Shown piece by piece: positions 24,138-61,973 of a stretch of DNA of 64,000 nucleotides. The first letter of the stretch is position 1. Every line of letters begins with the position of its first letter. The translations under genes and the position numbers were made by a program. The notes beneath the pieces were generated by a model, which did no database searches, was not told the DNA's origin, and worked only from the letters and a program-made list of their open reading frames with translations. Origin of the DNA: a virus (taxonomy: Duplodnaviria; Caudoviricetes); IMG/VR virus record IMGVR_UViG_3300028797_000013, positions 2,912 to 66,911 of that record; one strand, 5' to 3'.

Positions 24138-24638
24138 TTACTCGGCAGCATCCAGCAGAGCCTGGATGTCGGCCGCACTGACCTTGCCAGCCTTGATGGC
24201 ATCGGCGATGACCTGGGCATCCAGCTTGGTGCCACCACGAGCAGTGGGAGCGATGCCCCGCTGGTCCATGAGAGCCTTGACAGCATCCAGGCGGGCCTTG
24301 GCTTTGGTGGCATCACGGCCGGCCTTGGAGGTCTTGTAGTACACGCTGTTGGCGTTGCGGTACTCGATCTTCAGCTGGTCATCGGTCATATCCTCCAGGG
24401 CGATGCCGACCAGCTGGCCGCGGCTCTGAGCCTTGGGCAGCTCATACTCGAACTCGATGGTCTCGCCGGCCTTGATGTCGCGATCGGCGGTGTAGCTGAC
24501 CTTGATCACGCGAGGCTTGGCAGGCTTGCGCTCTTTGGTGCCGGTGGCAGGAGCCACAGTGGTCTCGGCGGCAGCCAGCTCAGCTTCGATGCTCGCAGCA
24601 TCATTGAAATCGACGGGGGTCTTGTTCTCTTCGGACAT
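24138..24638 (-). CDS. Hypothetical helical protein, paralog family member P1
   Basis: AAAGGAG SD; strong codon bias; own promoter; 34-aa ungapped match to 61209..61973. Confidence 0.85.
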   Translation of the reverse strand: MSEENKTPVDFNDAASIEAELAAAETTVAPATGTKERKPAKPRVIKVSYTADRDIKAGETIEFEYELPKAQSRGQLVGIALEDMTDDQLKIEYRNANSVYYKTSKAGRDATKAKARLDAVKALMDQRGIAPTARGGTKLDAQVIADAIKAGKVSAADIQALLDAAE

Positions 24639-24741
24639 GGTTCATTCTCCTTTTCATTTTGCTCGCGCGCATCCGAACGCGCGGCTTGTTTTATGCGGCA
24701 GTCAGGGGGCTCCCTGTTCGCTGCTCACATATTCTAATAAT

Positions 24742-24773
24742 ATAATACCATGGGGTACGCGGTAACTACACCG
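24742..24773 (-). promoter_or_regulatory. Phage-motif promoter (copy 4 of 5)
   Basis: CGGTGTAGTTACCGCG-N10-TATTAT. Confidence 0.7.
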
Positions 24774-24881
24774 TGAACTAAAATCTGGAGAGGTACCGCA
24801 TGATGTATTTTGCCTGCAGCGCCGGGACCCCGGAGCGAAAAGGCCCACGGCCCCTGCATCTACTGACAACAGGAAAATCTT

Positions 24882-25147
24882 GCTGTAAGATTGTAAAAAT
24901 GTAAAACTGTAAAAGATGTAAAATCTGTAAGCAAAGAAATCTATATGAGATTAAAACTCTGCGTCCCAGCGACGCTGGGATCTTTATTCTATTTATCTCT
25001 ATTGCTTCTTTACTTTACAAATAATAAAAGAAGAGAAGCAAGCAAATCAAAATAAAGAAAAGAATGAGAGTAGAAAAGTTTCTCCAACGCAGAGCCTCTT
25101 ACAAATCTTACATTTTCTACAGTTTTACATTTTTACAATCTTACAGC
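24882..25147. repeat. Element A: 50-bp inverted repeats made of six TGTA(A) units around an AT-rich core; origin-like
   Basis: Arms 24882-24931 and 25098-25147 are 46/50 complementary; unit spacing 8-9 bp. Confidence 0.85.
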
Positions 25148-25226
25148 GGAAAACGCCCGCGGCGTCCGAATACCGCAGGCGTTCCCCGGAAGGAGTAGAA
25201 CCATGTCTAACAAGTAGGACCCCAAT

Positions 25227-25463
25227 CTACTCGTTAGCTTGTTCGCGTGCTCGTTTGCGTGCTTGTTCTTTCTTGTACTGCACAGTAGAAATGCCCCACA
25301 GAGCACCCAGGAATGTATCAATGACTGCTAGGGTACCGACGATCTCTTTGCCATAGGGGAAGCCCCAGATCTGTGCAAGACCGAAGTACATGGTACCGAG
25401 TGCAGGCAGGACCACCTGGGCGATCCATTTCAGTACGTCGAAAGCTTTGTCAGAGAGAATCAC
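25227..25463 (-). CDS. Holin (Dp-1 family-like)
   Basis: LSDKAFDVLKWIAQVVLPALGTMYF...IWG.PY...VGT...DTFLG; two TM segments; GTG start after GGAGG. Confidence 0.85.
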   Translation of the reverse strand: MILSDKAFDVLKWIAQVVLPALGTMYFGLAQIWGFPYGKEIVGTLAVIDTFLGALWGISTVQYKKEQARKRAREQANE

Positions 25464-25468
25464 ATGTG

Positions 25469-25741
25469 TCACCTCCTGTCATCTTCTAAGATATTGTCAG
25501 TGTCCGGGATTCTGCGATTCTCGAACTTCTTATAGGCGTCGAGGTACCATTCGTACTGGTTGCCATTGTAGGTCAACTCATAGTACATACCATCGAACAG
25601 CGAGGAGGACAGGCAGTACTTCCAGTTCTGGAGCACTTTCGCCTTCCACACAATGTAGACATCAAAGTTAGGCGCGGGGTCACTGGGATCCAGGTGTGCT
25701 TTGATGTAGCCGCGGACCAGAGCAATCGCTTTCTCGTCCAT
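25469..25741 (-). CDS. DUF6275-like protein
   Basis: VW..K.LQNWK...S...DGMYYELTYNG...E.YLDAYKKFEN motif recognised from memory. Confidence 0.75.
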   Translation of the reverse strand: MDEKAIALVRGYIKAHLDPSDPAPNFDVYIVWKAKVLQNWKYCLSSSLFDGMYYELTYNGNQYEWYLDAYKKFENRRIPDTDNILEDDRR

Positions 25742-25750
25742 CTACACACC

Positions 25751-26620
25751 TCAATCATCAGTGAGCAGGCCGCTCAGTGTCTTCTCATCATCGTCCTCCT
25801 GGCATGCAGGGCCGAAGTGCGGCGTGTTGAGCTTCTGGTCGATATACTGCTTCATCAGGACACAGGCCTTGATGGTGTCCTGGGTCAGATTGACATCAGT
25901 AGCATTGATTTCCCGGGGCGTACCACCATTGAGGATGTCGCGATCCAGGAGCTCTTTGATCATGGGCTGCCAGTAGATCGGTACATCTGCATAGTCCGCA
26001 AACATAGGATTGCGATGCTGCAGCGCCGCAGCAATCTCTTCCTGGCAGATAGCTCTGATTTGTTCCTTCAGCTCTTCAGTCATTTTGGCTTCTCCTTTCA
26101 AGCGTATTGTTACTTTCTTGGCAATATCGCCGAAGCGATTATAGAGGTAGCTACCAGGGCAGGCCTTAGGAGCAAACCATCTATGCGCAGTCATGTTCTG
26201 CAGATCGACTCTGCCGATCAAGGTATTATCTGCGAGCCAGAGCAGCTGCTTAATATTGTTGCGCTTACAGATATCAGTGCACAAGTCAATCACAGCAGCC
26301 ATAGCTTCACTACTCACAGGCCAATCCGGTGCGCCAGCAGTATTGGAAACTTCAATCGTGATTGCACGGTTGTCATTTGCAGAACTACTGGAGCACCACG
26401 AGCGGTTTGCCTCATCGACAAAAAGCCCGATTCTGCCCTTCGAATCGACACCATAGTTGCTACTGGCCTGCACACTGCTTTGTGCAAACCAGTTGCCGAG
26501 GCTCTCAATCGAAGCATTGCCAGCTACACAGTGGATCGTGATTGTATCGATTATGTGTTTGCGAGGGCCGCTGTGGTTAGGAGATAGCTTGGTATAAACT
26601 ACCAGTGGGCTGTTACTCAT
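25751..26620 (-). CDS. Endolysin, N-acetylmuramoyl-L-alanine amidase (Amidase_2) with C-terminal domain
   Basis: ITIHC, ASSNY, RSWCSSS..ND.RAITIE, HRWF..KACPG; start moved to MSNSPL. Confidence 0.9.
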   Translation of the reverse strand: MSNSPLVVYTKLSPNHSGPRKHIIDTITIHCVAGNASIESLGNWFAQSSVQASSNYGVDSKGRIGLFVDEANRSWCSSSSANDNRAITIEVSNTAGAPDWPVSSEAMAAVIDLCTDICKRNNIKQLLWLADNTLIGRVDLQNMTAHRWFAPKACPGSYLYNRFGDIAKKVTIRLKGEAKMTEELKEQIRAICQEEIAAALQHRNPMFADYADVPIYWQPMIKELLDRDILNGGTPREINATDVNLTQDTIKACVLMKQYIDQKLNTPHFGPACQEDDDEKTLSGLLTDD

Positions 26621-26714
26621 CGTCCTCACCAGGTTCCTTTCCATTGGTGAGCTCCTCAAGCGCACCTTCGAAAAGTTCGTCGCTTTCATAAACAGGCTTA
26701 TATTCGGGTTCCAT
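26613..26714 (-). CDS. 33-aa acidic peptide upstream of the endolysin
   Basis: GAAAGGAG SD; MEPEYKPVYESDELFEGALEELTNGKEPGEDDE; not on the ORF track. Confidence 0.6.
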   Translation of the reverse strand: MEPEYKPVYESDELFEGALEELTNGKEPGEDDE

Positions 26715-26726
26715 ATTGACTCCTTT

Positions 26727-26969
26727 CTACACTTCAGATAAACTCACAAGCATAGGATCCATGGCCATTGAAGGACCTTTGGTGAACAGTTTCGCGGCAG
26801 CATCGAAGACAGTAGCCAAGCCTTCTTTGATCTGCAGTGAGCTACCTAGCCCTTCGTTTGTCTTCATACCCTGGATCACAAGACCAGAGGTATCAACTAC
26901 TTGTGGAGCTTCGACCTCAGAAAAGCTTGCAGGATCCCAGACAGTAATATAAGACTGGGCTTTAGCCAT
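26727..26969 (-). CDS. Hypothetical protein (80 aa)
   Basis: Start moved to MAKAQS, overlapping the upstream gene end. Confidence 0.55.
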   Translation of the reverse strand: MAKAQSYITVWDPASFSEVEAPQVVDTSGLVIQGMKTNEGLGSSLQIKEGLATVFDAAAKLFTKGPSMAMDPMLVSLSEV

Positions 26970-27264
26970 GCGAGATCTCACCATCCTTAAGGACATCAGA
27001 GACATCCATCTCATAGATGTCACTAGCATCAGCGTACCCATCGCTGGTAACATAACGGATCTGTACCTTGACTGGCTTGCCAGCTACAAAGCTCAGGGTG
27101 TCTTCCTGGGTGAGCTGCACCTCAATGTTGTAGGGAGAAACTACCAGGGCATCCCCAGTCTTCTCCACCACCACTGTCTTCTGAGTGAAGGTCACAAAGA
27201 CAGTAGCTTCAGTGAGGTCTACATTGATTGCAAAGTTATAAATCGGGGTCGTACCTCTGCGCAT
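26962..27264 (-). CDS. Small structural protein, BppU N-terminal-like
   Basis: RGTTP..F, LTQEDTLSF, VKVQIR...G.A.AS motif common in Clostridial phage tail/lysis regions. Confidence 0.6.
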   Translation of the reverse strand: MRRGTTPIYNFAINVDLTEATVFVTFTQKTVVVEKTGDALVVSPYNIEVQLTQEDTLSFVAGKPVKVQIRYVTSDGYADASDIYEMDVSDVLKDGEISHG

Positions 27265-27280
27265 AGTATCTACACTCCTT

Positions 27281-27613
27281 TCATAAATTTATCTTAGCGA
27301 GGACAAAGCCGATGAGCGCTGCAACTACTAGCTTGATAATGTCAGTGACCAGATTGTCCCAGCGCTTAGCAGGCTTAGACTCAAGCCGTTCAAGCCTGAT
27401 GCCTTGGTTCTTGATCTCTGTTGCCATTGTGCCTATATTGATTGCCATCTTCTCAATAGCAACCGTTAAGTCACCGATACGCTGCGCTGCAGCTTCGACG
27501 GCCTTAATCCTTTCATTTTGCCGCTTGTTTTCATCGTCGCGGCGCTGGTTCTCCGTTTCCATTCTGCGGGCGAACTCTTCATGCTCACGCCGCGTAATGA
27601 AATCACCTTCCAT
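27281..27613 (-). CDS. Lysis-region coiled-coil protein with C-terminal TM segment (XhlA-like)
   Basis: ITRREHEEF...KRWD...VAALIGFVL. Confidence 0.7.
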   Translation of the reverse strand: MEGDFITRREHEEFARRMETENQRRDDENKRQNERIKAVEAAAQRIGDLTVAIEKMAINIGTMATEIKNQGIRLERLESKPAKRWDNLVTDIIKLVVAALIGFVLAKINL

Positions 27614-27622
27614 AGCTGCCTC

Positions 27623-28324
27623 CTAGTACCCTGCGCCCCACACTGGGGTGCCGTTGATCTTGATGTAGGTGTGCTCAATATCCAGCATGGCAAAGCCCGA
27701 GGACTCTGATGACGTTCTTCCATTATTCCCAAAAATGAATTGGCGGCCTGAGCGCTGAACATGGGGGTTTGTCACTTCTATCTCTCGTCTAGCCGTTGTA
27801 ATTCCGTTGGAAACTGAAAATGACCAGATTGAACCGTCCCAGCGGTAGTTCATGTCATAAATTGTTCCAGCATTAATTGGTAAATTATCTTCCGGGTATT
27901 GAGACCCACCCAAGTATATTGTATAATCCCACGTTCCTGTAGATCTATCTGAGAATCCCGCAAAAAAATGAAGATCGCATCTAACCTCAAAACTCGGATT
28001 ATAATAGAAATTGTTTGAATAATTGGTGCCGCAAATAAAAGCTCGATTTGGAAATGTAGGGAGTTCGCTTAGTTTTACTCGTGTATGGATTTCAAATGGT
28101 TGCGTAAAATCTGGTTGGAAGACCTGATTGCTTGAATCCGCCGGAGCTAGTCCAGTATTAGCTGTTGTTAAGTTAATAAACGGCCCAACCCATTTTCCAT
28201 CGGAAAAACAATTTACATACCGGGCGTTCATCTTGCTTCTGTCTAAAACCGGGGTTTTCCTCATTGGCGGTGTAGTCAAGGCCATCACCGTCGCCCACTT
28301 GATTTCTTCCTTCGTCAGTGCCAT
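27623..28324 (-). CDS. Putative receptor-binding/lectin-like tail protein
   Basis: Aromatic, beta-rich sequence; AT-richer DNA; N-terminal shared helix; GGAAAAA precedes MALTK (weak SD). Confidence 0.6.
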   Translation of the reverse strand: MALTKEEIKWATVMALTTPPMRKTPVLDRSKMNARYVNCFSDGKWVGPFINLTTANTGLAPADSSNQVFQPDFTQPFEIHTRVKLSELPTFPNRAFICGTNYSNNFYYNPSFEVRCDLHFFAGFSDRSTGTWDYTIYLGGSQYPEDNLPINAGTIYDMNYRWDGSIWSFSVSNGITTARREIEVTNPHVQRSGRQFIFGNNGRTSSESSGFAMLDIEHTYIKINGTPVWGAGY

Positions 28325-28338
28325 GTTTTTTCCCCTAT

Positions 28339-29426: not shown

Positions 29427-29429
29427 TGC

Positions 29430-30725: not shown

Positions 30726-30740
30726 AGTATTGCCTCCTTT

Positions 30741-33367: not shown

Positions 33368-33378
33368 TGCTCTACCTC

Positions 33379-45481: not shown

Positions 45482-46233
45482 TTATATCTCGAAGCCCACC
45501 TCTTCAACAGTATCAACTACCCTGTGAGTACTCGGACTATTTACCTTTGCATGGGCCTGACTTAACATATTAAGCTTAACGGGCGTGCTGCGCCAGAATG
45601 ACTTTTCAGACATCCGCAGCACAGTCACGCCCGTATAGAACAACATCGGCCAGTCCCAACCCTTTGTGGTTACTGCGCCGAGGGATTGAACTGCAGTACC
45701 GTTTTCTTCTCCTCCGCCGGCGGCTCCTCCTCCACCGGCTCCTCTGCGTTTTTTGGCGGGATAAGGTCACGCAGCAGTGCAACGATGATCTTTGCGTTGA
45801 TCTCGCGCAGGTTTCTGAAGGTAACGTAGCTACCCAGCTTACTCTTGGAGATGTTGTAGCCAGTGATCTCGTCATGCTGATCATACTGGGCTGCATCATG
45901 CAGGCATCCTGCCCAAAGAAGATTCAGAGTGTCTTCATGCTTGGCCTGCTTGGTATGAACCTTCTTAAGATAGTCAAGCAGGGGAGTGCCCGCGATGGTG
46001 ATCGTCTTGCCATCCACAGGCATATCACCGATACGAACCTGCGTCAGAAGCTTCTCAGGATCAACATTTTCCTGGGTCCCAAGAACCATCTGAATGACAG
46101 AATCTACACTGTCATATATCTTCTCGAGCTCACAAAAGGCATTCAGGTCATATACGAGGCGGACCTTATAGTCCTCAGCAAGCTCGATCACCACATCATC
46201 AGGCTTGAAAATAGCTGCATTTTCGTTTGCCAT
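45482..46233 (-). CDS. Tail assembly chaperone, -1 frameshift (gpGT-like) product, ~250 aa
   Basis: A AAA AAC at 45748-45754; -1 frame open to TAA 45482 and encodes DWPMLFYTG...MSEKSFWRSTP.KL. Confidence 0.8.
45670..46233 (-). CDS. Tail assembly chaperone (gpG-like)
   Basis: Between major tail protein and TMP; GGAGG SD. Confidence 0.85.
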   Translation of the reverse strand: MANENAAIFKPDDVVIELAEDYKVRLVYDLNAFCELEKIYDSVDSVIQMVLGTQENVDPEKLLTQVRIGDMPVDGKTITIAGTPLLDYLKKVHTKQAKHEDTLNLLWAGCLHDAAQYDQHDEITGYNISKSKLGSYVTFRNLREINAKIIVALLRDLIPPKNAEEPVEEEPPAEEKKTVLQFNPSAQ

Positions 46234-46261
46234 GGTCGATCAATTCCTCCTATTGTTTTTA

Positions 46262-46296
46262 GAAAAGAGGAGCGGGCGGTCATTCCCGCTCCTCTT
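46262..46296 (-). terminator. Intrinsic terminator after the major tail protein gene
   Basis: GAGGAGCGGG/CCCGCTCCTC stem followed by TTTTCT. Confidence 0.7.
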
Positions 46297-46318
46297 TGAA
46301 GAGCCCAGTGTCTTTTGC

Positions 46319-47182
46319 TTAGGACACAGTCACGCTGCAGAGCACGCGGACGCCGCCCACAGAGGCACTGACCAGAGCAGTGCCGGGAGCCACAGGCGTC
46401 AGCACTGCGGCGCTCACGCCGCTGGCATTGGTAGCCCCGCCGGTCACGGTCACGACGCTCTCATCACTGGATGCCCAGACAGGCTGAATGCCCTCGGTCA
46501 CAGGCGTGACGGTAGCACTCAGGGCACCGTCGGTACCGACAGTCAGAGACTTGGTATTCGCATCCAGCTCGATGTCGGTGATCAGCGTGCCATTGCCGCC
46601 GGTCAGCGCCAGAGACTGACTGGTGAACCAGTTGGCGATAACAGCCGCAGAGACAGACGGATCGTCAGTATCCACAGCGATACGCCACAGGTTGTCAGCG
46701 TCGCGCTTCAGGAAGTTGCCGGTGATAGTCGGCGTGTTCCAGTTGATGCTGTCAGATTTGGTCTGGTTGTTCTCGTCGGGCGGGCTGAACTTGCCCTTCA
46801 GATACCAGATCAGCCGGTCAGCACCATTGGACTTCTTCACGCTCATGCCGATCGCCACATAAGGCGGGATGGCCTCAGCGGAAGAACTCACGACGCCATT
46901 GGCATAGGTCTCGCCCAGCAGGAAGGCCCGATGCTGGGGCTTCAGGTCGGCGACATTCAGCTCCAGGGTCATGGCACCCAGCGTGTACGCAGAATCGTAC
47001 GGGCCGTCGTCAGCGAACAGGGTGTCATTGGCAGCATTGGGGCTGAAATTTGCCGTGATCGCACCGGCAATGCGAACCGGGGCGTTGTAGGAGAAGGTCC
47101 CGGCCTCAGCATCATCGGTGAGCATTTCGGCGTAGTGCAGGTTGGTAAGACCGATGGCCACGCCTTTGCCTTTCATTGCCAT
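46319..47182 (-). CDS. Major tail protein (phi13-like) with C-terminal Ig-like domain
   Basis: GLTNLHYA, LFADDG, W.LKGKF; LTVG...LSATVTP...VWASSDESVVTV Big_2-like domain. Confidence 0.88.
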   Translation of the reverse strand: MAMKGKGVAIGLTNLHYAEMLTDDAEAGTFSYNAPVRIAGAITANFSPNAANDTLFADDGPYDSAYTLGAMTLELNVADLKPQHRAFLLGETYANGVVSSSAEAIPPYVAIGMSVKKSNGADRLIWYLKGKFSPPDENNQTKSDSINWNTPTITGNFLKRDADNLWRIAVDTDDPSVSAAVIANWFTSQSLALTGGNGTLITDIELDANTKSLTVGTDGALSATVTPVTEGIQPVWASSDESVVTVTGGATNASGVSAAVLTPVAPGTALVSASVGGVRVLCSVTVS

Positions 47183-47199
47183 GATAGAAGTTCCTCCTT

Positions 47200-47607
47200 T
47201 TATCGTTTTGTTGTCAAAAGGGCATAAAACTCAAAGGTTTTTCTACCCTGTTGATCCTGTTCGTGAAACTGAGGCGCATCATACAAAGTAATCTGCGCTC
47301 TCGTTTCAGCAAGCTCAAGGAAGCCAGGCTGGTCACCGATGAACTCATCCTCAGTGTTATCCAGTGCCTCATAAAGCTCTTGGGCAATCTCAAACGCTGT
47401 AGTGCTGTTTGCCGCACGGGTAGCTACCCTGATTGCATGAATCCCAGCATCGATCACCGCCGGAACATCCCGACCGGTACGAACACGCTGAACTACAGAG
47501 CACTCGTTAACCTCAGCGGGCAGCTGATAGTAAAACATATCAACCCCCATCTCACGGCTGGTCTTTTCAGCAAGATACTCAGCAACCTGTACCACAACAT
47601 CCGTCAT
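47200..47607 (-). CDS. Tail terminator/neck protein
   Basis: Position just before the major tail protein gene; fold pattern consistent. Confidence 0.6.
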   Translation of the reverse strand: MTDVVVQVAEYLAEKTSREMGVDMFYYQLPAEVNECSVVQRVRTGRDVPAVIDAGIHAIRVATRAANSTTAFEIAQELYEALDNTEDEFIGDQPGFLELAETRAQITLYDAPQFHEQDQQGRKTFEFYALLTTKR

Positions 47608-48668: not shown

Positions 48669-48968
48669 CTAGCTACCGAACGACAACCTGACGGGTGCTA
48701 CATCCTCCTTAGAAGGCTTAGGCTGCTCTTCAGGCGCTTTCTCACCCTCACTGGGCGGGGCATCCTGCACAACAGGAGCAGCTACCACCTGCTGCACAGG
48801 CGCCCCAGAGGAAATGACCGCGGATTCAGTAGGCTCCTCAACTGCCAGAACGACCTTACGCTCAGACATGCGAAGCCTAAGAGAGCGGATCGCGGACTCA
48901 TCCACAACCTCGCCCTTCCGCAGGGTTCGGCCAAAGGACCGAAATGTGTGCAAGACGAGGTACTTCAC
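48669..48968 (-). CDS. Hypothetical head-associated protein
   Basis: AAGGAGG SD with GTG start; follows the capsid gene. Confidence 0.65.
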   Translation of the reverse strand: MKYLVLHTFRSFGRTLRKGEVVDESAIRSLRLRMSERKVVLAVEEPTESAVISSGAPVQQVVAAPVVQDAPPSEGEKAPEEQPKPSKEDVAPVRLSFGS

Positions 48969-48980
48969 GGGACGCCCTCC

Positions 48981-49964
48981 TTACACCAGGTTGTAGAAGA
49001 ACGTGCCGCAGTCCCTGGAAATGACCTTCATGTCGTAGGCCATCTCCATCTCGAACCGCTCGGTGCCCAGACCCAGCTGGTCCATCTTAATACGCACGAG
49101 ACGGTTGCCGAAGGCAGAAGCGCCCTCGAGGCCGGTCCAGGCAAAGATGTAGCCAGAGGTGGGGGCCTTCAGGGAAGGCCGGCCGGCGCAGTGGCCGAGC
49201 AGCATGGCACCCTTATAGATGAAGTTCATGTCGATCAGCGTCTCGCTGTCGGCAGGCTCCGTCATACTGGGCACCTGGGCCTCACCATTGTAGACCGCCC
49301 AAGGAACGAGGATGCGGTCGAGCTCGAACAGGCTGGCGATCAGGTCCAGCGTGACGATGCCCTTCTGCGTGTACTTGATGCGGTCGATGATGGCCTCGTG
49401 GTTCTTCAGTGCATAGAAGACATCAGGGCTGATGATCGCATAGTTGGGCTTGACAGCCGTCTCCTCAGCCATCTCCAGCATAGCGTCATTGATGTCCTTG
49501 ACAGGATCGCTGGACTGACTGGACCACTTGGCCGCTGCTTTGTCCTTGTCCCTGCCCCAGACGCCGGTCTTGAAGAACTTGCCGGCGAAGTCCAGCTCGC
49601 GTTTGAGCAGCATCTTGTGGCCAAGCCACTCGACGGTATCACGCTCGACGTCGAGGGGCTTATCGTAGTTGACCCGCTCCTCTTCGGTGATGTCGTAGTG
49701 GTAGGCATACTTGCGGCAGTAGTAAGGATCCGCAATCCGTGCGTTCCAGTTACCACCGGCGGACTCGGCACCGCGGCCACGCTCCTGAACCTCATTGCGG
49801 AAGTTGTCCGCCTTGCTGTACTCGAAGTACACATCCGACTGCTTCTGCACGCGGATGATGGGGAACGCTTTGTCGGCGATGAAGGCGTCCGCACTCTGCA
49901 TGTAGGCAACAGAGATATTGGTCAACGCACGGTCAATGTGTCCCAGGTTTCTCATTTCAGGCAT
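48981..49964 (-). CDS. Major capsid protein
   Basis: LTNISVAY, F.D.AFP...V.KQ motifs; size, position and codon bias. Confidence 0.85.
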   Translation of the reverse strand: MPEMRNLGHIDRALTNISVAYMQSADAFIADKAFPIIRVQKQSDVYFEYSKADNFRNEVQERGRGAESAGGNWNARIADPYYCRKYAYHYDITEEERVNYDKPLDVERDTVEWLGHKMLLKRELDFAGKFFKTGVWGRDKDKAAAKWSSQSSDPVKDINDAMLEMAEETAVKPNYAIISPDVFYALKNHEAIIDRIKYTQKGIVTLDLIASLFELDRILVPWAVYNGEAQVPSMTEPADSETLIDMNFIYKGAMLLGHCAGRPSLKAPTSGYIFAWTGLEGASAFGNRLVRIKMDQLGLGTERFEMEMAYDMKVISRDCGTFFYNLV

Positions 49965-49988
49965 TACCTTTTCCTCCTTCCTACCAGA

Positions 49989-50720
49989 TTAAGAAATGGT
50001 AATGGTCACTGTGATCTTGCCGGCGGCGGTCTCAGCCACGGGCGTGCCATTGGCGATGACGCCGGCACCGAAGGTCGCAGCGATCTCATTACTGTTTGCA
50101 TCAGCCAGCGTGACGCTCGTCGCACCGTCAGACTGGTTGTCAGCCGTGAAGACGACCTCGCCAACCGTGATGGTGGCGACAGACTTGCCGGTGTGCTCAG
50201 TATCATCAGCCGTAGAGACCTTGACAGCGTAGTCACTAGCCTCGAGACCGAGTGCCTGAGCCACAGTGCCCTGCATGGTCAGAGCAGTGATCTTACCATT
50301 GGCAGGAGAGCTGTCAGACCAGACAGCAGAGTAGCTGGCCGTCTTCGCCGAAGCGATGCCGGCCTCCAGGATATTAAGGCTGGTGAGTTCACCAGCAGCG
50401 GCGTCGTTCAGAGCAACGCCGATGACACCAGAAGTACCCTTGGCAGCCTTGCCGGGGTTGCCAGTGTCGATGATCAGGGTATCACCGGCCTTCACGTCCT
50501 CAGAGACGCAGACAGGGTAAGTACCCTTGACGATGGTGACCATACGGTCGGCAGCTTCGCAGCCATACTCGCAGACGCCTGCGAAGTAACCGGTGCCGGC
50601 GGCCTTCTGGTACTTACCAGAGATCCCCATCTCGACGAGATCATACTTCGCGATCTCTTCAGAAGCGTACCACGACTGACGAGTGGTGATCGCTTCGAAA
50701 GCAGTCTTCGGATTCGCCAT
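49989..50720 (-). CDS. Capsid decoration/cement protein (DUF2190-like) with extra domain
   Basis: VTIVKGT..V.....VKAGD....G.A....G..IGVAL..AAAGE motif. Confidence 0.7.
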   Translation of the reverse strand: MANPKTAFEAITTRQSWYASEEIAKYDLVEMGISGKYQKAAGTGYFAGVCEYGCEAADRMVTIVKGTYPVCVSEDVKAGDTLIIDTGNPGKAAKGTSGVIGVALNDAAAGELTSLNILEAGIASAKTASYSAVWSDSSPANGKITALTMQGTVAQALGLEASDYAVKVSTADDTEHTGKSVATITVGEVVFTADNQSDGATSVTLADANSNEIAATFGAGVIANGTPVAETAAGKITVTITIS

Positions 50721-50723
50721 CGT

Positions 50724-51470
50724 TTACACTCCTTCCGTATACTTTCTGTAGGTCTCGGGGTCCGCGCTGCACGCCTGGGTGAAGGCCTGCTCGAAGGACA
50801 GCCCGGTGTTCTGCTTCATGATCTCATGGGCGCTCTTCTCGAGCTTGCCATAGAGGTCATCAGCAGAGGTGCCCACGAACTCGGGATTGGCACTGGAGCC
50901 CTCCGGAGTATGGGTCTTGTCGAGGATCGCAGCCGCAGCCTTCTCGAGGATAGCGACCATCGCCGGGCTGGCGGTCTTCAGCACATTCTTGAGCTCGTCC
51001 TCAGCGACAGGAATCGCCTTGCACTTCTCAAAGCGCTGAGCTGCCAGCGTGTCCGCCTTATCAGCCAGCAGCTGATCGATGGTGGCCTGCTGCCGCTTAA
51101 ACAGCTCAGCCACCTCAGGGGACATACCCTTGGTCACATCCTCGGCAGGAGCCGGGGCAGCCTTTTCCAGATTCTCAACCTTGCCGTTAAGCTCAGTGAT
51201 AGTCTGGTTGAGCTTCGCAACCGCCTGCTCATGGTCCGCGGTAATCCCGGCAATGTGCTTAGTCAGAATTTCCGCCTGATCAGGCTGCAGGGCCTGCAAG
51301 AGCTCTTCGTACGTCTTGGGCATCGTAGCATTCTCCTTTCTTTTCGTCATGATTATATCAGCACGTGAATTCGCTCCTTCATTGCACAAAGCAACTGCCC
51401 TGAGCCTGAGATCCACAAGCGCTGTCGAAGGATTGGAAGGGGTAATGCGACTTGTTTTCTCAACAGACAT
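50724..51470 (-). CDS. Scaffold protein (second in-frame start at 51323)
   Basis: Coiled coil, acidic; two strong SD/ATG pairs. Confidence 0.7.
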   Translation of the reverse strand: MSVEKTSRITPSNPSTALVDLRLRAVALCNEGANSRADIIMTKRKENATMPKTYEELLQALQPDQAEILTKHIAGITADHEQAVAKLNQTITELNGKVENLEKAAPAPAEDVTKGMSPEVAELFKRQQATIDQLLADKADTLAAQRFEKCKAIPVAEDELKNVLKTASPAMVAILEKAAAAILDKTHTPEGSSANPEFVGTSADDLYGKLEKSAHEIMKQNTGLSFEQAFTQACSADPETYRKYTEGV

Positions 51471-52172: not shown

Positions 52173-52177
52173 TTCAA

Positions 52178-53575: not shown

Positions 53576-53593
53576 TGCTTTTCCTCCTTTCTT

Positions 53594-55495: not shown

Positions 55496-56031
55496 CAGAA
55501 TCCCTCCTCCAATGAAGCGTCTACACCTATCCACTGGATGATTCGTTGTGCACGCTCTTTATCATAGAACGGCTGCACCAAGAACCACTTAAAGATAGGC
55601 TTATTCCCGCGCCCACGGTTACACTTCCTGCAGGCAGGCCCAATGTTATGTCGCGTGGTTTTGCCTCCTCGTGATAACGGTACGAAGTGCTCTCTATCGA
55701 ACCGGGCGTCTTTGGCACGCCCCTCGGATCTACCACAGTAGCAGCAGACACCTCTGAAATGCAACAAAGCAGCCTGCCAGTCCTCGTTCGTATAGTCTAC
55801 TGCCTCCATGCCGCGCAGCTTCTCTTTGCTCACAAACTTACCTGTTTTAGGTGCCTGCCGCTTAGCCCTACGCTTAATCAATGTACACTCCTTACACTGT
55901 CCAGTCGGCTGGTTCGTATAGGCCGCCCTATAGAACTCACTGATCGGGAGCTCACGACCACAGCAGCTACACACCTGGGTAGGGATCTCGAAGTGCAGCC
56001 TCACATTAGATGTCAATGCTGTCTGGCTCAC
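55495..56031 (-). CDS. HNH endonuclease with N-terminal zinc finger
   Basis: CCYCG...DREHFVPLSRGG....N.GPACRKCN; between terS and terL. Confidence 0.88.
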   Translation of the reverse strand: MSQTALTSNVRLHFEIPTQVCSCCGRELPISEFYRAAYTNQPTGQCKECTLIKRRAKRQAPKTGKFVSKEKLRGMEAVDYTNEDWQAALLHFRGVCCYCGRSEGRAKDARFDREHFVPLSRGGKTTRHNIGPACRKCNRGRGNKPIFKWFLVQPFYDKERAQRIIQWIGVDASLEEGF

Positions 56032-56968
56032 TGTTGTCGCCTCCCTTCACAACTACTGTCGTTTTCCTCTCTACGCCTATGACAGCACCAGGCTGAACTA
56101 CTCCGGTCTGCTGGAGTATGTCCATGACCTCCTGTAGGTCCTCAGCCTTAGTACGCTGCCGCGTCTGTTCCTGTGCAGCTACCTGAGCACTCTCCACCTT
56201 CTCCTCACGATAAGTAGTGATGTTCCGCTCAAGCTCAGACCCAAACTTCGCAAGAGCTACGATCTCATTAGGCCTCAGCAGCGAAGGGTCGATCTCATCT
56301 ATAGCCATAGAGACCTTCTCCTGGAGCCTCTGAGCCATAGAGAGCTGCTTCTCATTCATCTCACGAATCGCTTTGATTCGCTTCTCTTGCCCCTCACTAT
56401 CTACTGCCTTGGCCCATTGGACCATTCTGGCTTTGAAGTTCCACCGCTGTGCTGTGCGCGTGACGAAACCTACTGACAGGTTAACCTCTTTTGCAAGCTG
56501 TGACCACCTGGGCAAAGCAAGGGGATAGTAACTACGATACTTTTCCCAGACGATCCACTCATTATCAGTCTCTTCGGGTTGCCGCTCATACAGTGCGAGG
56601 CCAAGCTGACCCGCCTGTTCCATCCAACCTTCATTAGTTCTACGCATCAGCGTAGTCTGCTCTTCCAGCTTTGCATAGCATGTTGCACACAGCTGCGGGT
56701 TTCTGATGCTACGCTGGGTGGTGCTACCACACTCACTACAACGCCACTGGCCATCTACTCCAACAGCTTCCCATGCAGCATCTACAATCTCTGTATTGCC
56801 TGTGGGCTTGGTATGTGTGGGCACTCCGCCTTTTGGCCAAAATGGATCCGGCATCGTAGGAACTACTGTACCGCCTCCGCCAGCTCGCGGCGCTGACTTT
56901 TTATGCTCTACGGTAGCTGCGTGGAGCACATCAGCGTCGAGATGCTTGCCCGACGTGTTCATGGTCAT
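56006..56968 (-). CDS. Putative terminase small subunit
   Basis: ERQPEETD.EW..W..YR...LAKEV......AQRWNF..R...W pattern; first gene of the packaging operon. Confidence 0.7.
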   Translation of the reverse strand: MTMNTSGKHLDADVLHAATVEHKKSAPRAGGGGTVVPTMPDPFWPKGGVPTHTKPTGNTEIVDAAWEAVGVDGQWRCSECGSTTQRSIRNPQLCATCYAKLEEQTTLMRRTNEGWMEQAGQLGLALYERQPEETDNEWIVWEKYRSYYPLALPRWSQLAKEVNLSVGFVTRTAQRWNFKARMVQWAKAVDSEGQEKRIKAIREMNEKQLSMAQRLQEKVSMAIDEIDPSLLRPNEIVALAKFGSELERNITTYREEKVESAQVAAQEQTRQRTKAEDLQEVMDILQQTGVVQPGAVIGVERKTTVVVKGGDNSEPDSIDI

Positions 56969-57075
56969 TTCCTCCTTCCCATTTCTCATATTATATTATA
57001 CGCACACGATGGCGAATAGCTACTAGTCGCTAGTACGCTATTACTTGTGTCCGTTGACTATACCCTCCAACTATG

Positions 57076-57186
57076 CTGTAATATTTGACTGTAATATTTG
57101 ACTGTAATATTTGACTGTAATATTTGACTGTAATATTTGACTGTAATATTTGACTGTAATATTTGACTGTAATATTTGACTGTAAT
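57076..57186. repeat. Tandem repeat, 8 exact copies of CTGTAATATTTGA plus a partial copy
   Basis: Counted directly; lies in the divergent gap between terS and the plus-strand genes. Confidence 0.95.
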
Positions 57187-57303
57187 TATGCAGCAAGACA
57201 GCGACGCAGCGCCCAGTGTAAGGGATATGCACGCACACGCGGCTATAATCCTTGACTTTAGAAAGGCCTATGTCGGGCCTAATAAAGCCGGAAAGCACCT
57301 TGA

Positions 57304-57557
57304 CAACTTGATACAGCACGCAGGGCCGAGATAAAGATGAGAGAATTTGTGGAGTATTTTCCTGTGCTTTGCATCTACCTGATGTATATCCTCGTGCCCC
57401 TGACTTTCTGTGGACTCCTTGAGGAGCTCATTGTTCGGACCAAGACTGGCCGTCGATTTGAGGCCTGGCTATTTAAGAAGCTGGGCATCAACACTGACGA
57501 AGATAAATAAATAACTAACTAAAGGAGGTCAGAGGTCCTGCGTGCTGTATCAAGTTG
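57304..57557. repeat. 21-bp perfect inverted repeat flanking a small gene
   Basis: CAACTTGATACAGCACGCAGG at 57304-57324 and its complement at 57537-57557. Confidence 0.85.
57337..57510 (+). CDS. 57-aa membrane protein (not on the ORF track)
   Basis: MREFVEYFPVLCIYLMYILVPLTFCGLL...; one TM segment and basic tail; SD weak. Confidence 0.55.
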   Translation: MREFVEYFPVLCIYLMYILVPLTFCGLLEELIVRTKTGRRFEAWLFKKLGINTDEDK

Positions 57558-57809
57558 CCAGGGGGCATTGCACCTTGACAACTAAATATTGGTGAGTGAG
57601 AGATTGGTAGATAACCAAGTTCCTTTCTCACAACACTGAAAGGAGGTGGTGCCGCCAAAGCAGGCACCGTTCCCCGCGGGTATCTACACGCCAACTGAAG
57701 GTGTAGCCCGAGCAGTGAGGGTGAGAGCTGCTAGGCCACTGAGTGGCTGACTGCCGACAAAGTCGAGCATCGTGTGCACTAAAGAATAAAGTGCAGAAAG
57801 GAAATTACC

Positions 57810-58499
57810 ATGGCTAACTCTAAACTGTCTGCCAACCTCACGCTCGCGGCGATCGCGATCAAGTATGACGTCAACGCCCACGGCGTCGACAACCTGAAGG
57901 CTGCCATCGAGAACGGGGAGATCCTGGGCATGCTGAAGGCCTGTGCTGATGAGCTGTATGGCGGGGACATGAAGCCCGTTATGGCTCAGTTCAATAGGAA
58001 CCTGAGCAGCCAGCGCTGCACCCGGAAGATCACCGACACGGCCAGCAAGAACAGGGCTGACATGGTTGAGCTTCTCTGGGCTATGACCCACGGCACCAAG
58101 GTTGGTGCTCCTAAGGCCCCTCGTGCTGGCTTCCAGTACACGATCGAAGAGGTTGATGTGCTGGCTGCTGAGGGCAACGTTGCTGAGCTCCAGCGGCTCT
58201 ACAACAACGTCCACAGCAACGTGAACAAGAGGCTGGCTGGGGAGCATCCCAGCAACTGGGCTGCCCGCTTCGCGGAGGACCCCACGCTGGCCCGCTGGGT
58301 CAAGGTGAAGGAGCACGTCAGTGAGGTGCTTCCCAAGGTCAAGGCTCGGGCTAAGGCCAGCAAGCCTGTCGAAGAGACCCCCACCAAGCCTGAGGTCAGC
58401 AACGACTTGGCCAAGAAGCTGGCTAACTACAAGGCTGGCAAGAAGGCCACGTTCACCCCTGAGCAGATGGCTGAGATCCTGAAGCTCCTCCAGGGCTGA
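57810..58499 (+). CDS. Hypothetical helical protein, paralog family member P3
   Basis: GAAAGGA SD; strong codon bias; AELQRLYNNVHSNVNK motif. Confidence 0.85.
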   Translation: MANSKLSANLTLAAIAIKYDVNAHGVDNLKAAIENGEILGMLKACADELYGGDMKPVMAQFNRNLSSQRCTRKITDTASKNRADMVELLWAMTHGTKVGAPKAPRAGFQYTIEEVDVLAAEGNVAELQRLYNNVHSNVNKRLAGEHPSNWAARFAEDPTLARWVKVKEHVSEVLPKVKARAKASKPVEETPTKPEVSNDLAKKLANYKAGKKATFTPEQMAEILKLLQG

Positions 58500-58588
58500 T
58501 CGCGCGAGTGTGAGTTAACAGAGAAAATGTGGGAGTGAGATTACCACAGCTAAAGAAAGTACCCCCTGCACAATTTAATCTACTACAC

Positions 58589-59140
58589 GTTGGGTGATGA
58601 ATAACGTTAAGCACAGAAAGGAATCTACCAATGACTAGTCTCAGCCCTATCGTTCAGTGTGAAGCCAAGACCGTTTGGGACCTGGTGGTCGCTGACACGT
58701 GTAGCTGCATGGAGCTCCATAAGCCCTGCAACAAGCTCATCGAGGATGGTGAGTATAAGCATGTGAGACTGCCCTGTGGCTATGCTTGTGAGAACCTGGG
58801 CACTAAGATGCTGTATCATTACCTGTTGAAGGATAATGACCTGCTGAAAGAAACCTATCCCATCTATTGGAAGAAGGTTACCTTCAAGGGTGAAATGAAC
58901 GCGGTGCTTGGCTGGCTCAACCATTGGGATCCCAATGGAGACTGGGATGCGCAGGATGTGCTACTGACCCCTATCCAGACGATTAGGACCCTAGAAAATC
59001 TTAAGGCAGAGCTGGAGGACGACTACCAAGAAGTTCCTGGCTGGATCGACTCCTGCATCGACTACCTCCTGCTGTTTACAGTCTAAGTAATGAAGAATGT
59101 TGGGTGATGAATAACGTTAAGCACAGAAAGGAATCTACCA
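58589..59140 (+). repeat. R1: 42-bp perfect direct repeat (58589-58630, 59099-59140) containing the SD
   Basis: GTTGGGTGATGAATAACGTTAAGCACAGAAAGGAATCTACCA occurs twice. Confidence 0.95.
58631..59086 (+). CDS. Hypothetical early protein
   Basis: Directly after R1. Confidence 0.8.
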   Translation: MTSLSPIVQCEAKTVWDLVVADTCSCMELHKPCNKLIEDGEYKHVRLPCGYACENLGTKMLYHYLLKDNDLLKETYPIYWKKVTFKGEMNAVLGWLNHWDPNGDWDAQDVLLTPIQTIRTLENLKAELEDDYQEVPGWIDSCIDYLLLFTV

Positions 59141-59637
59141 TGGCTAAGTTCTACTACAATCCCGCAACCCGCACTTGTGGTACTAAACAGACCATTAGGT
59201 GCACCCTCACCACTGACCAGTACTATGAGTCTGAGAAGCGCTGGTTCTGGCATGCCGTGAAAGCCGGTGATGTGTACCAGGATCCGTTTAAGTGCCTCAC
59301 TCCGAAGGTGGTTAATACCATCGAAGAGCTGAGTGAAATGGTGAAGCAGGCCGGCTTCTCTGGCGGTGTACACTTCATCGACGCTGAAGACAACCTGTAC
59401 AACATCAATCAGACGGCTGCCTTTGAGTTTGCGCCTCTGAAGCACGATGGTCAGCATTCTAATGCAGGGATCAACTGGGCCACGTGCTTCTTCTTTACCG
59501 AAGAGGCAGCACAGGCATTTGGTGAGAGCCTCAATGCGGGACGCAAGCATGAAGATGGGTATTTCAGATGGGATAAACCTGAGTACCATGAAGACCTGGA
59601 CACCTGGAGCGTCCGCTATCGCTGCTACGCCGACTAA
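59140..59637 (+). CDS. Hypothetical early protein
   Basis: Directly after the second R1; start moved to MAKFYY. Confidence 0.8.
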   Translation: MAKFYYNPATRTCGTKQTIRCTLTTDQYYESEKRWFWHAVKAGDVYQDPFKCLTPKVVNTIEELSEMVKQAGFSGGVHFIDAEDNLYNINQTAAFEFAPLKHDGQHSNAGINWATCFFFTEEAAQAFGESLNAGRKHEDGYFRWDKPEYHEDLDTWSVRYRCYAD

Positions 59638-60141
59638 TGTAAAGTATGGGGGCTGCGCATCCTACACGCAGAGAAAGGAAACTAAATGAAACCAATCATT
59701 AGCTTCTATTTGGATAGTGCTGTCATAGAGCTGCACTTCTCAGGCGGGCCTTACGCATTTATTAACTGCACAATAAAGGAGCATTGGCCAGAAATGCTCA
59801 CTATTTCGCACATCCCGTATGAAGCATTTGAGCTACTCGATATTGAGCAGCAAATGAAAGTTACTGATTTCGTAGATCTCATGGACTTTTGGTCCATTCC
59901 CGATTTACTCAGTGATGACGAGCTGCAAGATAGGATTAATATGCTATTCTCTGACTATCCTACGGTGTGCAGTATGTTATACAAGCTACTGTACAACTGG
60001 CTTCAGGATATAACTGAGAAGAATCCTGAAGAAGTACAGCAGCTAACTGATTCGTTCCTAACAGAACTTGGAGAGCTTCTTGAGGACCTTGACCAAGAAG
60101 ACTAACGTAAAATACGGGGGCTGCGCATCCTACACGCAGAG
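59632..60141 (+). repeat. R2: 42-bp direct repeat (59632-59673, 60100-60141; 39/42 identical) with CTGCG/CGCAG hairpin
   Basis: GACTAAYGTAAARTAYGGGGGCTGCGCATCCTACACGCAGAG; includes the stop codon of the upstream gene. Confidence 0.92.
59686..60105 (+). CDS. Acidic hypothetical early protein
   Basis: GAAAGGA SD; markedly acidic; AT-richer than neighbours. Confidence 0.8.
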   Translation: MKPIISFYLDSAVIELHFSGGPYAFINCTIKEHWPEMLTISHIPYEAFELLDIEQQMKVTDFVDLMDFWSIPDLLSDDELQDRINMLFSDYPTVCSMLYKLLYNWLQDITEKNPEEVQQLTDSFLTELGELLEDLDQED

Positions 60142-60186
60142 CATATTACGTCAGGTTCAAGACGTTAAAACCAGAAAGGATCTACC

Positions 60187-60780
60187 ATGAATAACACCAA
60201 TCTCAACATCAACATCACTCTGAGCGCTGTCGAAATGGCTACCATTCGTGAAGCCCTGCGCTATGCTGCTCAGCAGGTCCATGACTCGGGTATCCCTGTG
60301 TTCGAGAACTATGAGACCATGAACTCTGCTGGCAAGTACGTGTTCGACGAAGACCTTCACACGGACAATCAGGCGAAGGCTGATCTGGCCCTCGAGCTGG
60401 CTGACACCCTGGATCTCATCGAGGCTGACGGTTATGACTGGATGGTCTTCCGTGAGGACTACTGCATCGGTGAGCGTTTCATGGCTGTCTGGTGCCGGCA
60501 CTGGAAAACCGAGGACTTTGCTACCCCGCTGATCACTGAGTTCGTCTGGAGGACTCCCGCTGGTGCAATCTACACCAGTATTCACAAGGACTACGTGATG
60601 CCCCTCAACACCACTGTCGCAGTTCACTACGTGCCTTATGACAAGCTGACTGACAAGAATGTTGTGCACTACTACGACCTGGATGATATCAAGAACAAGG
60701 TGCCTAACATCTCTGAGGATCGTGAAGTCAATGATACTATTCTCGAGGCTCTCAGGACTTGGTTCAACTACCACATCTGA
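60187..60780 (+). CDS. Hypothetical early protein
   Basis: GAAAGGA SD; strong codon bias. Confidence 0.8.
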   Translation: MNNTNLNINITLSAVEMATIREALRYAAQQVHDSGIPVFENYETMNSAGKYVFDEDLHTDNQAKADLALELADTLDLIEADGYDWMVFREDYCIGERFMAVWCRHWKTEDFATPLITEFVWRTPAGAIYTSIHKDYVMPLNTTVAVHYVPYDKLTDKNVVHYYDLDDIKNKVPNISEDREVNDTILEALRTWFNYHI

Positions 60781-61047
60781 TCTCACTCACCAATAGTTAG
60801 AGAGTGCTGGTGCATGGAAGGAGGTGATTACCTTGCACCAGTTCATCCTTGATCACTTTATAGATCCGGTTGGGCTGCATCCGCCGCGCGGTGCGGTCCA
60901 ACTGATTGCGGCAAGGCCGGAGTGGGCACCGCGACGACGCGGCCCAGCTAAATCGTCCGCCGCGCAACGCACCATAAAAGCATCGCCGCCTTCCAGCAGG
61001 CCAGCGCCGCAGCGACCTTGGGATGGTAGAAACCAGAACAAAAGTCC

Positions 61048-61079
61048 CGGTGTAGAAGCCGTGGCGAGCAGTGTATAAT
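61048..61079 (+). promoter_or_regulatory. Phage-motif promoter (copy 5 of 5)
   Basis: CGGTGTAGAAGCCGTG-N10-TATAAT. Confidence 0.65.
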
Positions 61080-61208
61080 GGCTATAGTGAGGGCGAGAAA
61101 GCGGTCTTTGCCAGCCGCGGTACGAGCTCCACGGTGCACTTTGACAAGCCCGCAACGCGGGCACAACACAGCGGGTAACACCCGCACATCTTGAAAGGAG
61201 AGCATACC

Positions 61209-61973
61209 ATGAAGAAGCAGAACACCAACCTGAACACCACCGAGGCCACCGTCATCAACCCGTTCGAGAGCCTGAACGCCGTGAGCGTTGTGCAGGCCGG
61301 GACGAGGAAGCTGGCCTACACCGGAGTCCTGCAGGAAAAGGCTCGGAGCATGACCACGGAGCTCATCCGCAAGGCCGGTGGGGACGCCAAGTTGGCTCCC
61401 TTGGCCAACACCATGCTAGCGGACAAGACGCCTGAGAGCCTGCTGGCCTTCATCACCGAGGGCATCCCGTCTGAGCAGATGACGGAAGCGTCGAAGGTCC
61501 TCGACGGGTGCCCGGACGACGACCTGCCCAAGATGCTGGAGTCGCAGCGCTCCAACCGTTCCAAGGCCAAGAGAACCGGTTTGGTCGCCATGCCGAAGGT
61601 CATCGACTACGTGGCCAGCATGGTGGGTGAGCTCCTCATCCGGGAGCGCACGGGCAAGGCCTATGCAAGCACGGGCAAGCTGGCTACCGACCATGAGGTT
61701 CTCGCGGCCGACCAGGACCAGCTGGTCAAGCGCATCAACTCATTGGCTTCCAAGAAGTCCCGCCTGAGCAAGCTGGCCACCTACGATGCCAATGCCAAGT
61801 CTGAGCTGGATGCCGTCGAGGCCGAGCTGCAGGAGCTCCGGGCCCTGCGTCCCAACAAGACCAAGACCACGGTCAAGTCGGTCAAGCTCGAGGACATCAA
61901 GTCCGCGCTCGCGGCCATGTCCGATGAGGAGCGTGAGAGCCTGATCGCCCTGATGCAGCAGAGCGTCGGATAA
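61209..61973 (+). CDS. Hypothetical helical protein, paralog family member P2
   Basis: GAAAGGAG SD before MKKQN; strong codon bias; matches 24138..24638. Confidence 0.85.
   Translation: MKKQNTNLNTTEATVINPFESLNAVSVVQAGTRKLAYTGVLQEKARSMTTELIRKAGGDAKLAPLANTMLADKTPESLLAFITEGIPSEQMTEASKVLDGCPDDDLPKMLESQRSNRSKAKRTGLVAMPKVIDYVASMVGELLIRERTGKAYASTGKLATDHEVLAADQDQLVKRINSLASKKSRLSKLATYDANAKSELDAVEAELQELRALRPNKTKTTVKSVKLEDIKSALAAMSDEERESLIALMQQSVG

Follow-up and report, generated by a model that had tools for sequence, protein, structure and literature searches.

The 64,000-nucleotide stretch analysed here (the window) is part of a tailed-phage contig, IMG/VR record IMGVR_UViG_3300028797_000013, and contains two inverted-repeat elements, A (263 bp) and B (412 bp), that most likely constitute twin replication origins resembling those of the Staphylococcus aureus pathogenicity islands (SaPI). 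Judged by its sequence and by analogy with the SaPI helicases, the most likely reader of both elements is the putative winged-helix domain at the C-terminus of a DnaG-primase/MCM helicase encoded by the phage itself. The arms of A and B are built of short repeats (iterons) with a TGTAA core, and this core is also found in a 13-bp tandem array in a third place. Three genes with strongly biased codons, P1, P2 and P3, lie beside the three loci, and the first-pass annotation of the window had proposed that they encode paralogous repeat-binding proteins, each with a cognate array, which would act in replication initiation, genome segregation or organisation, or packaging. The explanation favoured here is that A and B are twin origins with one common reader, that the 13-bp array is separate from them, and that P1, P2 and P3 share a tail without being the readers; our confidence in this explanation as a whole is slightly above even.

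Anatomy and genomic position of elements A and B

The left arm of element A consists of six TGTAA(A/G) iterons on the plus strand with a pitch of 8–9 bp (24883..24930), and is followed by a core (24931..25098) with a hairpin at 24963-24981 and then a pyrimidine-rich/purine-rich AT tract, and by a right arm with six inverted iterons, TTACA, on the minus strand (25099..25145). Element B is built in the same way, with a left arm of six TGTAA(A/G) iterons at a pitch of 9–11 bp (62463..62519, plus strand), a core (62520..62821) containing the inner inverted repeat AAAAGTCGTACAAAAC (62546-62561 / 62781-96), and a right arm of six inverted iterons (62822..62874, minus strand). In both elements arms of about 50 bp, inverted to each other, thus flank a further inverted repeat on their inner side and an AT tract with strand asymmetry. 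The core of A has 76% AT over 100 bp, which is the third most AT-rich window of the genome, and the core of B has 80% AT over 100 bp from position 62621, which is the most AT-rich 100 bp of the genome. Clusters of six TGTAA within at most 55 bp are only found in the five arms and arrays of the three loci, and the maximum in 50 shuffled sequences was three. The common TGTAA core that had been noticed earlier therefore holds for the window itself, but at the 13-bp array it is not kept in the relatives, as described below.

The contig is 66,911 bp long with ends overlapping by 26 bp, indicating that the phage genome is complete and assembles as a circle. Its strong Shine-Dalgarno sites make a Firmicute the probable host. 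When the open reading frames (ORFs) of the window were scanned nearly all genes were found on the minus strand, and the three TGTAA loci are located exactly at the three junctions between the transcription units. The late operon runs from the small terminase gene (terS) to the holin gene and has its terminus at element A, the early operon extends from the 13-bp array to element B, and the middle/replication unit, P1 to PolA, continues from element A round the circle to position 63046, i.e. to element B. The 13-bp array is accordingly situated between the divergent late and early operons, A between the late and middle units, and B where the early and middle units converge, with the module of replication genes bracketed by A and B. 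Two intrinsic terminators (61992..62064, plus strand) end the early operon ahead of B, and one intrinsic terminator (62881..62911, minus strand) that abuts the right arm of B ends the replication operon, so that B is fenced by terminators on both sides; A is fenced by terminator-like hairpins. The terminator and promoter scans at both elements detected no outward-reading promoter from the arms.

In the proposed mechanism the arms of about six iterons would face the most easily melted DNA of the genome, and the terminators would shield A and B from outside transcription. One helicase hexamer would load on each arm, as the SaPI Rep/PriRep helicases do, the AT core would melt, and replication would depart bidirectionally. 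About six iterons at a pitch of about 9 bp, which by our own calculation corresponds to a helical rotation of about -60 degrees per step, fit the six C-terminal domains of a hexamer.

The position of the elements, exactly at the transcription-unit junctions and fenced by terminators, would also suit boundary or organising sites, either operator-like arrays through which a phage regulator would insulate the units or set their timing, or sites for mutual pairing, of a centromere-like or looping kind. Two sites of identical specificity across a circular genome could indeed pair, and the phage has its own sigma-like factor (20662-21210, in the middle/replication unit). However, neither ParA/ParB nor a repressor or an integrase was found among the scanned ORFs, the arms lack a detectable outward promoter, and six iterons per arm at about 9 bp facing an AT core is a layout specific to the origins of self-loading helicases, and a boundary function is considered possible but rather unlikely. 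The partition and packaging readings of A and B were rejected or down-weighted, the former for the want of ParA/ParB in that scan and the latter because the HNH gene beside the terminase suggests that cos packaging takes place near terS and not at A or B.

A GC-rich, ORF-poor spacer of 371 nt (62075-62445) separates the P2 terminators from element B and folds better than its shuffles on both strands (z = -2.6 and -3.1). GC-rich spacers are present at the same position in the relatives G004 and G001, and in G007, G012 and G016 the position is occupied by GC-rich tandem repeats of 37–48 bp of the 'GGCTAAAAGC' type. Long (AGT)n microsatellites are located directly beside the iteron elements in G007 (24065-24119) and G008 (56947-56997).

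Iterons in the relatives and their candidate reader

The relatives comprise 13 IMG/VR genomes fetched in full and 31 loci around P1 homologues, all reached through P1 loci, and genome counts below refer to the 14 genomes (8339 ORFs) made up by the 13 relatives and the genome of the window. In 23 of 29 IMG/VR loci the P1 homologue has an A-type element upstream at a distance of 90–385 bp, P1 adjoining A and P2 adjoining B are retained in the relatives, and A and B keep their syntenic positions in phages down to 33–50% protein identity. The iteron itself is variable, with at least seven types across the loci (TGTAA, TAGTAA, CCTTAGG, TCTTAAC, TCTCAAC, CCTAAC, TTATCTCA and ACAAAT). Wherever both elements are readable, A and B carry one common iteron specific for that genome, which is of the TGTAA type in G000, G001 and G006, CCTTAGG in G004, CCTAAC in G007 and TCTCAA in G008. 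Since the iterons of A and B change in concert, one trans-acting factor should read both, and not two paralogues.

By sequence identity P1 does not suit this role, as it does not track the iteron: the P1 of G004 is 62% identical to that of the window, yet the iteron is CCTTAGG, and the P1 of G006 is only 47% identical, yet the iteron is TGTAAG. The best-conserved segments of P1 and P2 are also invariant across the iteron classes. A gene-by-gene search in eight genomes for products that follow the iteron class gave the genes at 2666-3409 and 6541-7038, terS, the C-terminal domain of the helicase and, weakly, P2.

The best candidate among these is the helicase, a protein of 974 aa (14284..17208, minus strand) in which a DnaG-type primase with a zinc ribbon and a Toprim domain is fused to an MCM-type helicase, the latter recognized by Pfam PF00493 above its cut-off (E = 6e-17) and by an NCBIfam MCM domain (E = 1.7e-14). 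The C-terminal approximately 100 residues (about 14287-14700) show weak matches that are all to winged-helix proteins, namely DUF4423 (E = 0.0035) and the MarR-type HpaR (E = 0.12). The ratio of identity in the C-terminal domain to identity in the core is 0.74–0.79 between helicases of the same iteron class and 0.43–0.63 between those of other classes, and three iteron classes correspond approximately to three types of the C-terminal domain, with the wing reading YKRTP, YRRLP or YYKTA.

Several observations weigh against this assignment. Both winged-helix matches are sub-threshold, so the domain can only be called a probable winged helix. In the distant clade the putative winged helix is near-identical (GDYRRLPLG) despite iterons that read TCTTAAC, CCTAAC, TCTCAAC or TTATCTCA, and the covariation is therefore present at the level of the major clades only, where it is confounded with phylogeny. 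The products of 2666-3409, 6541-7038 and terS are, like the helicase domain, also closer to the window in G006 than in G004, and with eight genomes the search cannot separate tracking of the iteron from phylogeny. The elements are not directly beside the helicase gene, A being about 7.7 kb and B about 18 kb (round the circle) away, and the GC skew tracks the direction of transcription and is uninformative on origins. In addition, P1 and P2 remain the neighbours of A and B even in widely diverged phages and contain basic helices, which makes an accessory role for them at the elements possible, as discussed below.

Should A and B be origins, then uncultured, largely metagenomic phages of 55–71 kb with a DnaG-primase/MCM helicase, which form a widespread clade, would replicate from two symmetric sites on either side of the replication genes, and with iterons that drift in concert at both sites the clade would constitute a natural test series for how the specificity of a self-loading helicase changes.

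The proteins P1, P2 and P3 and the 13-bp array

P1 (24138..24638, minus strand, 166 aa) is the first gene of the middle/replication unit, P3 (57810..58499, plus strand, 229 aa) is the first large gene of the early operon, and P2 (61209..61973, plus strand, 254 aa) is the last gene of the same operon. All three ORFs are as first annotated, and the distances given then as about 250, 500 and 620 bp were measured as 245 bp from P1 to A, 490 bp from P2 to B and 624 bp from P3 to the 13-bp array. The strong codon bias was also confirmed, with an effective number of codons (Nc) of 29.8 for P1, 35.0 for P3 and 37.3 for P2, the three lowest values in an initial set of 46 genes. Three structural genes that were added later have an Nc of 34–37 and are the only others in this range, so that outside the structural genes no codon bias of the phage is stronger than that of P1, P2 and P3. 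From the codon bias the three products are apparently highly expressed and abundant. The rank of P1 is not kept in all relatives, as it is 31st of 69 in G001.

The proteins have 155 (P1), 50 (P2) and 45 (P3) relatives in the databases, mostly on metagenomic contigs of 65–72 kb, and the earlier remark that they belong to no known family still stands, with no match in Pfam, PHROGs, NCBIfam or PDB sequence profiles. Searches with the models of P1 and P2 by Foldseek and VIA-align and in the ESM Atlas gave only generic helical hairpins such as L29 and the SerRS arm, tblastn of all three proteins against 50,697 phage records gave nothing informative, and a search for fusions with the P1 profile in 1.84 billion proteins gave 86 small relatives and no informative fusion.

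P1 has a disordered N-terminus, a helical hairpin at residues 86–127 and a C-terminal helix-loop-helix at 141–165, and P2 has a confident helical domain at residues 38–148, a hairpin at 169–212 and a C-terminal helix-loop-helix at 227–253. The AlphaFold models of both proteins thus show a helical hairpin followed by a short C-terminal helix-loop-helix (pLDDT 84–95), and P3 also ends in a helix-loop-helix tail. A profile of the C-terminal half of P1 had two P2 proteins as its top two non-self matches among 4907 ORFs, and with a profile made from the 40 C-terminal residues of P3 the proteins ranking right after P3 itself were P2, P2, P1 and P2 among the 8339 ORFs. The tail of approximately 30 residues is therefore real and common to the three proteins. 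Pfam gave no SAP, HeH or Rho_N match to the isolated tails, and a likeness to HeH is an impression only.

This tail is what stands of the proposed kinship; the alignments do not prove that P1, P2 and P3 are full paralogues. The ungapped alignment of P1 and P2 does have 12 identities over 34 residues as first counted, a score matched by 1.7% of shuffles, and AELQRLYNNVHSNVNK is present in P3 and VLAA in both P2 and P3, but the matches of P1 to P3 and of P2 to P3 are at chance level (43% and 95% of shuffles). BLASTP gave E = 0.004 for P1 and P2 and E = 0.63 and 6.8 for the other two pairs. With hhalign the three family alignments gave probabilities of 18%, 2.3% and 8.5%; the forward scores were 22–30 compared to 12–16 for the reversed-profile controls, and the three pairwise alignments are mutually inconsistent, lying about one helical turn apart around the N..S...K motif.

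In the distant clade the place of P3 is taken by a family of about 175–195 aa, here called P4, with two tandem hairpins of the 'SxQSKKxRL' type found in P2 followed by the same C-terminal tail; its members are G003:62098-62655(-), the same gene as L071:2098-2655, G007:54878-55459(-) and G008:59770-60303(-). P4 and P2 are aligned by hhalign with a probability of 55% and probably share the hairpin module. The codon bias of P4 ranks first in G007 and fourth in G003, and the gene sits between long hypervariable tandem arrays, of 9 bp in 30.8 and, inverted, 16.7 copies in G003 and of 17 bp in 8.4 copies in G007. In the representative library there is also a long repetitive protein of 873 aa, P0301, with about twelve repeats of 'IIQAGKASVSDLQALLG'. 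These closely resemble the tail 'AIKAGKVSAADIQALLD' of P1, and the likeness may be fortuitous or reflect a small module common to both.

Our best guess is that P1, P2 and P3 all use the common tail to dock on a single partner, which would be DNA or the replisome; identification of this partner would give a function to proteins that rank among the most highly expressed of these phages. P1 may also act at the origin as an accessory protein. In this alternative P1, and perhaps P2, would be an abundant architectural or accessory protein with a role like that of phi29 p6, and would coat or bend the AT core beside its own gene and aid the helicase without reading the iterons. This would agree with P1 having the most biased codon usage of the genome, with its place as the first gene after A in most relatives, with its basic helical hairpin followed by a small helix-loop-helix, and with the fact that no single-stranded DNA-binding protein or separate initiator was recognized in the genome. 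In addition, the distant P1 proteins of G003, G007 and G008, which do not have the helix-loop-helix tail, end with ...DEI or ...SEI, and their acidic end resembles that of the helicase, as all primase-MCM proteins end with (S/T/A)(E/D)(I/V/Y/M/L) (14284-14300 in the window). In phage T7 the acidic tails of gp2.5 and gp4 dock these proteins on the polymerase, and the acidic ends of the helicase and of the distant P1 may be a shared docking tip of this kind. On the other hand, P1 has no homology to any DNA-binding family, its homologue in G026 (L043) has no adjacent element, and its codon bias is unremarkable in G001, and such a role is regarded as a minority possibility.

A further step would be to consider P1, P2, P3 and P4 as a new superfamily of very abundant phage proteins with a basic hairpin of the 'SxQSKK' type and a common tail, which sit on the origin cores and the hypervariable early arrays, or use the tail to dock on the primase-MCM helicase, and so form a layer that would resemble chromatin or license origins, would be specific for phages and has no described counterpart; this is speculative and we think it quite unlikely.

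A possible promoter was noticed upstream of P1. In distant phages (L027:1850-1900, L030:1865-1915, L043:1715-1790) the P1 homologues are preceded by a conserved 'CTGTAGAAA(A/C)CCGT' box and then TGTATAATAAT, an extended -10 region, and in the same place upstream of P1 the window reads GGTGTAGTTACCGCG...TGGTATTAT (about 24740-24790, minus strand). The box with its extended -10 region has the appearance of a promoter architecture specific for P1.

The 13-bp array (57076..57186, plus strand) has 8.5 perfect copies of CTGTAATATTTGA and lies in the divergent control region between terS and the early operon. Its unit is a composite, T(G/A/C)TAAT-N2-3-TTGAC, built identically to a single-copy motif, cTATAATccTTGACt, at 57243..57257 (plus strand), which precedes the first early gene by about 85 bp, is kept in the relatives and is, from its sequence, likely the -10 region of the early promoter. 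Because the unit is the same composite as this conserved motif, the array should have arisen recently, by expansion of a motif of the promoter region. In a relative whose P3 shows 95% identity the array reads 'CTGTAATACTTGA CTATAATTTTTGA CTAATTATG', relatives at 65–71% identity have two copies, and there are two copies of CTACAATCTTTAGCT in G001 and two of (C/T)(A/T)TAATATTTGAAC in G006. In these two or three imperfect copies the motif reads CTATAAT, CTACAAT or CATAAT and not TGTAA, and G006, with TGTAAG iterons at A and B, has no TGTAA at this locus. By these comparisons the array is a lineage-specific tandem expansion unrelated to A and B, and its TGTAA is coincidental. Distant relatives also have hypervariable tandem arrays next to the highly expressed early gene, with 31 units of 9 bp in G003 and 8 units of 17 bp in G007, which makes it likely that such arrays serve the early control region in some way that is independent of A and B. 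A reading of the array as σ70 promoters was rejected, as TTGACT and TAATAT are spaced by 14 or 27 bp and no promoter was found in the scan. A 'CACCTTGACAACT(T/A)(G/A)ATA' box was also observed between the early genes, at 57298-57320 and 57565-57590, and is kept in L089-L092 and G006.

The replication function ascribed earlier to the repeats thus agrees with A and B, which are of that kind and lie beside P1 and P2 in the relatives, but not with the 13-bp array. The same division applies to the co-occurrence of genes and arrays, as an A-type element precedes most P1 homologues but P3 is present in only four of the 14 genomes, and G007 and G008, without P3, still keep both elements. For three paralogues binding their own adjacent arrays speak the conserved adjacency of P1 to A and P2 to B, the weak co-linear profile similarity with hhalign scores above the reversed controls, the P2 proteins found with the C-terminal profile of P1, the common tail, the basic, helical and highly expressed nature of all three proteins, and the position of the P2-related P4 between long tandem arrays. 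This proposal has nevertheless become improbable, since A and B share one iteron in each genome and do not need two readers, the identity of P1 is independent of the iteron class and the conserved segments of P1 and P2 do not change with it, 10 of 14 genomes have no P3, the motif of the 13-bp array reads otherwise than TGTAA in the relatives, and the hhalign probabilities are low. In the favoured explanation P1, P2 and P3 would not be the sequence-specific readers, the arrays would mark the transcription-unit junctions, and the three genes lie beside arrays because the arrays sit at the junctions of the three units in conserved synteny. Very improbable is a small non-autonomous mobile element of the MITE (miniature inverted-repeat transposable element) type with sub-repeated terminal inverted repeats, for although A and B, with inverted ends of about 50 bp and a non-coding core, are present in two copies of 263 and 412 bp per genome, they keep the same syntenic positions at 33–50% protein identity with iterons changing in concert, and there is no transposase and no further copy.

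Other genes of the window and comparison with known systems

The late unit on the minus strand opens with terS (56006..56989), next to the 13-bp array, and encodes in addition the HNH protein, the large terminase, the portal, and head and tail proteins including one of 3884 residues, followed by the endolysin (25751-26689, minus strand) and the holin (25227-25472, minus strand), with which the unit ends at element A. The putative major tail gene (46319-47182), the putative major capsid gene (48981-49964) and an adjacent head-module gene (49989-50720), all on the minus strand, are assigned by position and codon bias only. The longest ORFs of the plus strand, 46205-47227 and 48948-51368, are shadow frames in a GC-rich stretch (54–56% GC) of these structural genes. 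The middle/replication unit contains P1, two tRNAs, which were all that a scan with Rfam detected, an SNF2 helicase, the sigma-like factor, a DNA ligase, the DnaG-primase/MCM helicase, a RecE-like exonuclease, ThyX, a dCMP deaminase and PolA. The early unit is a short operon on the plus strand (57337-61973) that contains P3 and closes with P2.

The SaPI origin has opposed iterons with a pitch of 9 bp around an AT-rich region, and the winged-helix C-terminal domain of Rep binds these with one hexamer on each side (bioRxiv 10.64898/2026.10.17.759575). Elements A and B resemble the origins of SaPI and other phage-inducible chromosomal islands (PICI), which are served by the self-loading helicases Rep and Pri-Rep, including the SF6 MCM-like Rep of SaPI2 and SaPIbov1, in having opposed iterons, about six per side at a pitch of about 9 bp, an AT-rich centre and a size of 260–410 bp. 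They also resemble them in an iteron that differs by lineage and in a helicase, here fused to a primase, whose C-terminal domain is probably winged-helix-like. Unlike the SaPI, where the origin is directly downstream of the helicase gene, the phage has two elements, 7.7 kb and about 18 kb from it. The primase is of the DnaG type, the genome is that of a 67-kb phage and not a satellite, and the phage origins are predicted ones. Twin origins would extend the SaPI paradigm in a sound and not unexpected way.

The satellite phage P4 has two sites, ori and crr, 4.5 kb apart, that are read by the alpha primase-helicase via its C-terminal DNA-binding domain, and the phage described here would be similar in having two separate cis sites with iterons and one primase-helicase as their reader; the P4 sites are, however, not symmetric palindromes around an AT core, and alpha is of the SF3 type and not the MCM type. 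A precedent for a phage genome with two similarly built origins is Bacillus phage SPP1, where oriL and oriR are separated by tens of kilobases and read by one initiator, G38P. This initiator is, however, a dedicated origin-binding protein, which works together with a helicase loader and a helicase of the DnaB type, and oriL is situated within the initiator gene. At the archaeal oriC inverted ORB elements (origin recognition boxes) flank a DNA unwinding element, and Orc1/Cdc6 and MCM act there with head-to-head loading. No Orc1/Cdc6 homologue was found in the phage, where the helicase itself is presumed to be the reader, but the inverted repeats around an AT-rich unwinding element and the use of a helicase of the MCM type are features that A and B would have in common with the archaeal origin.

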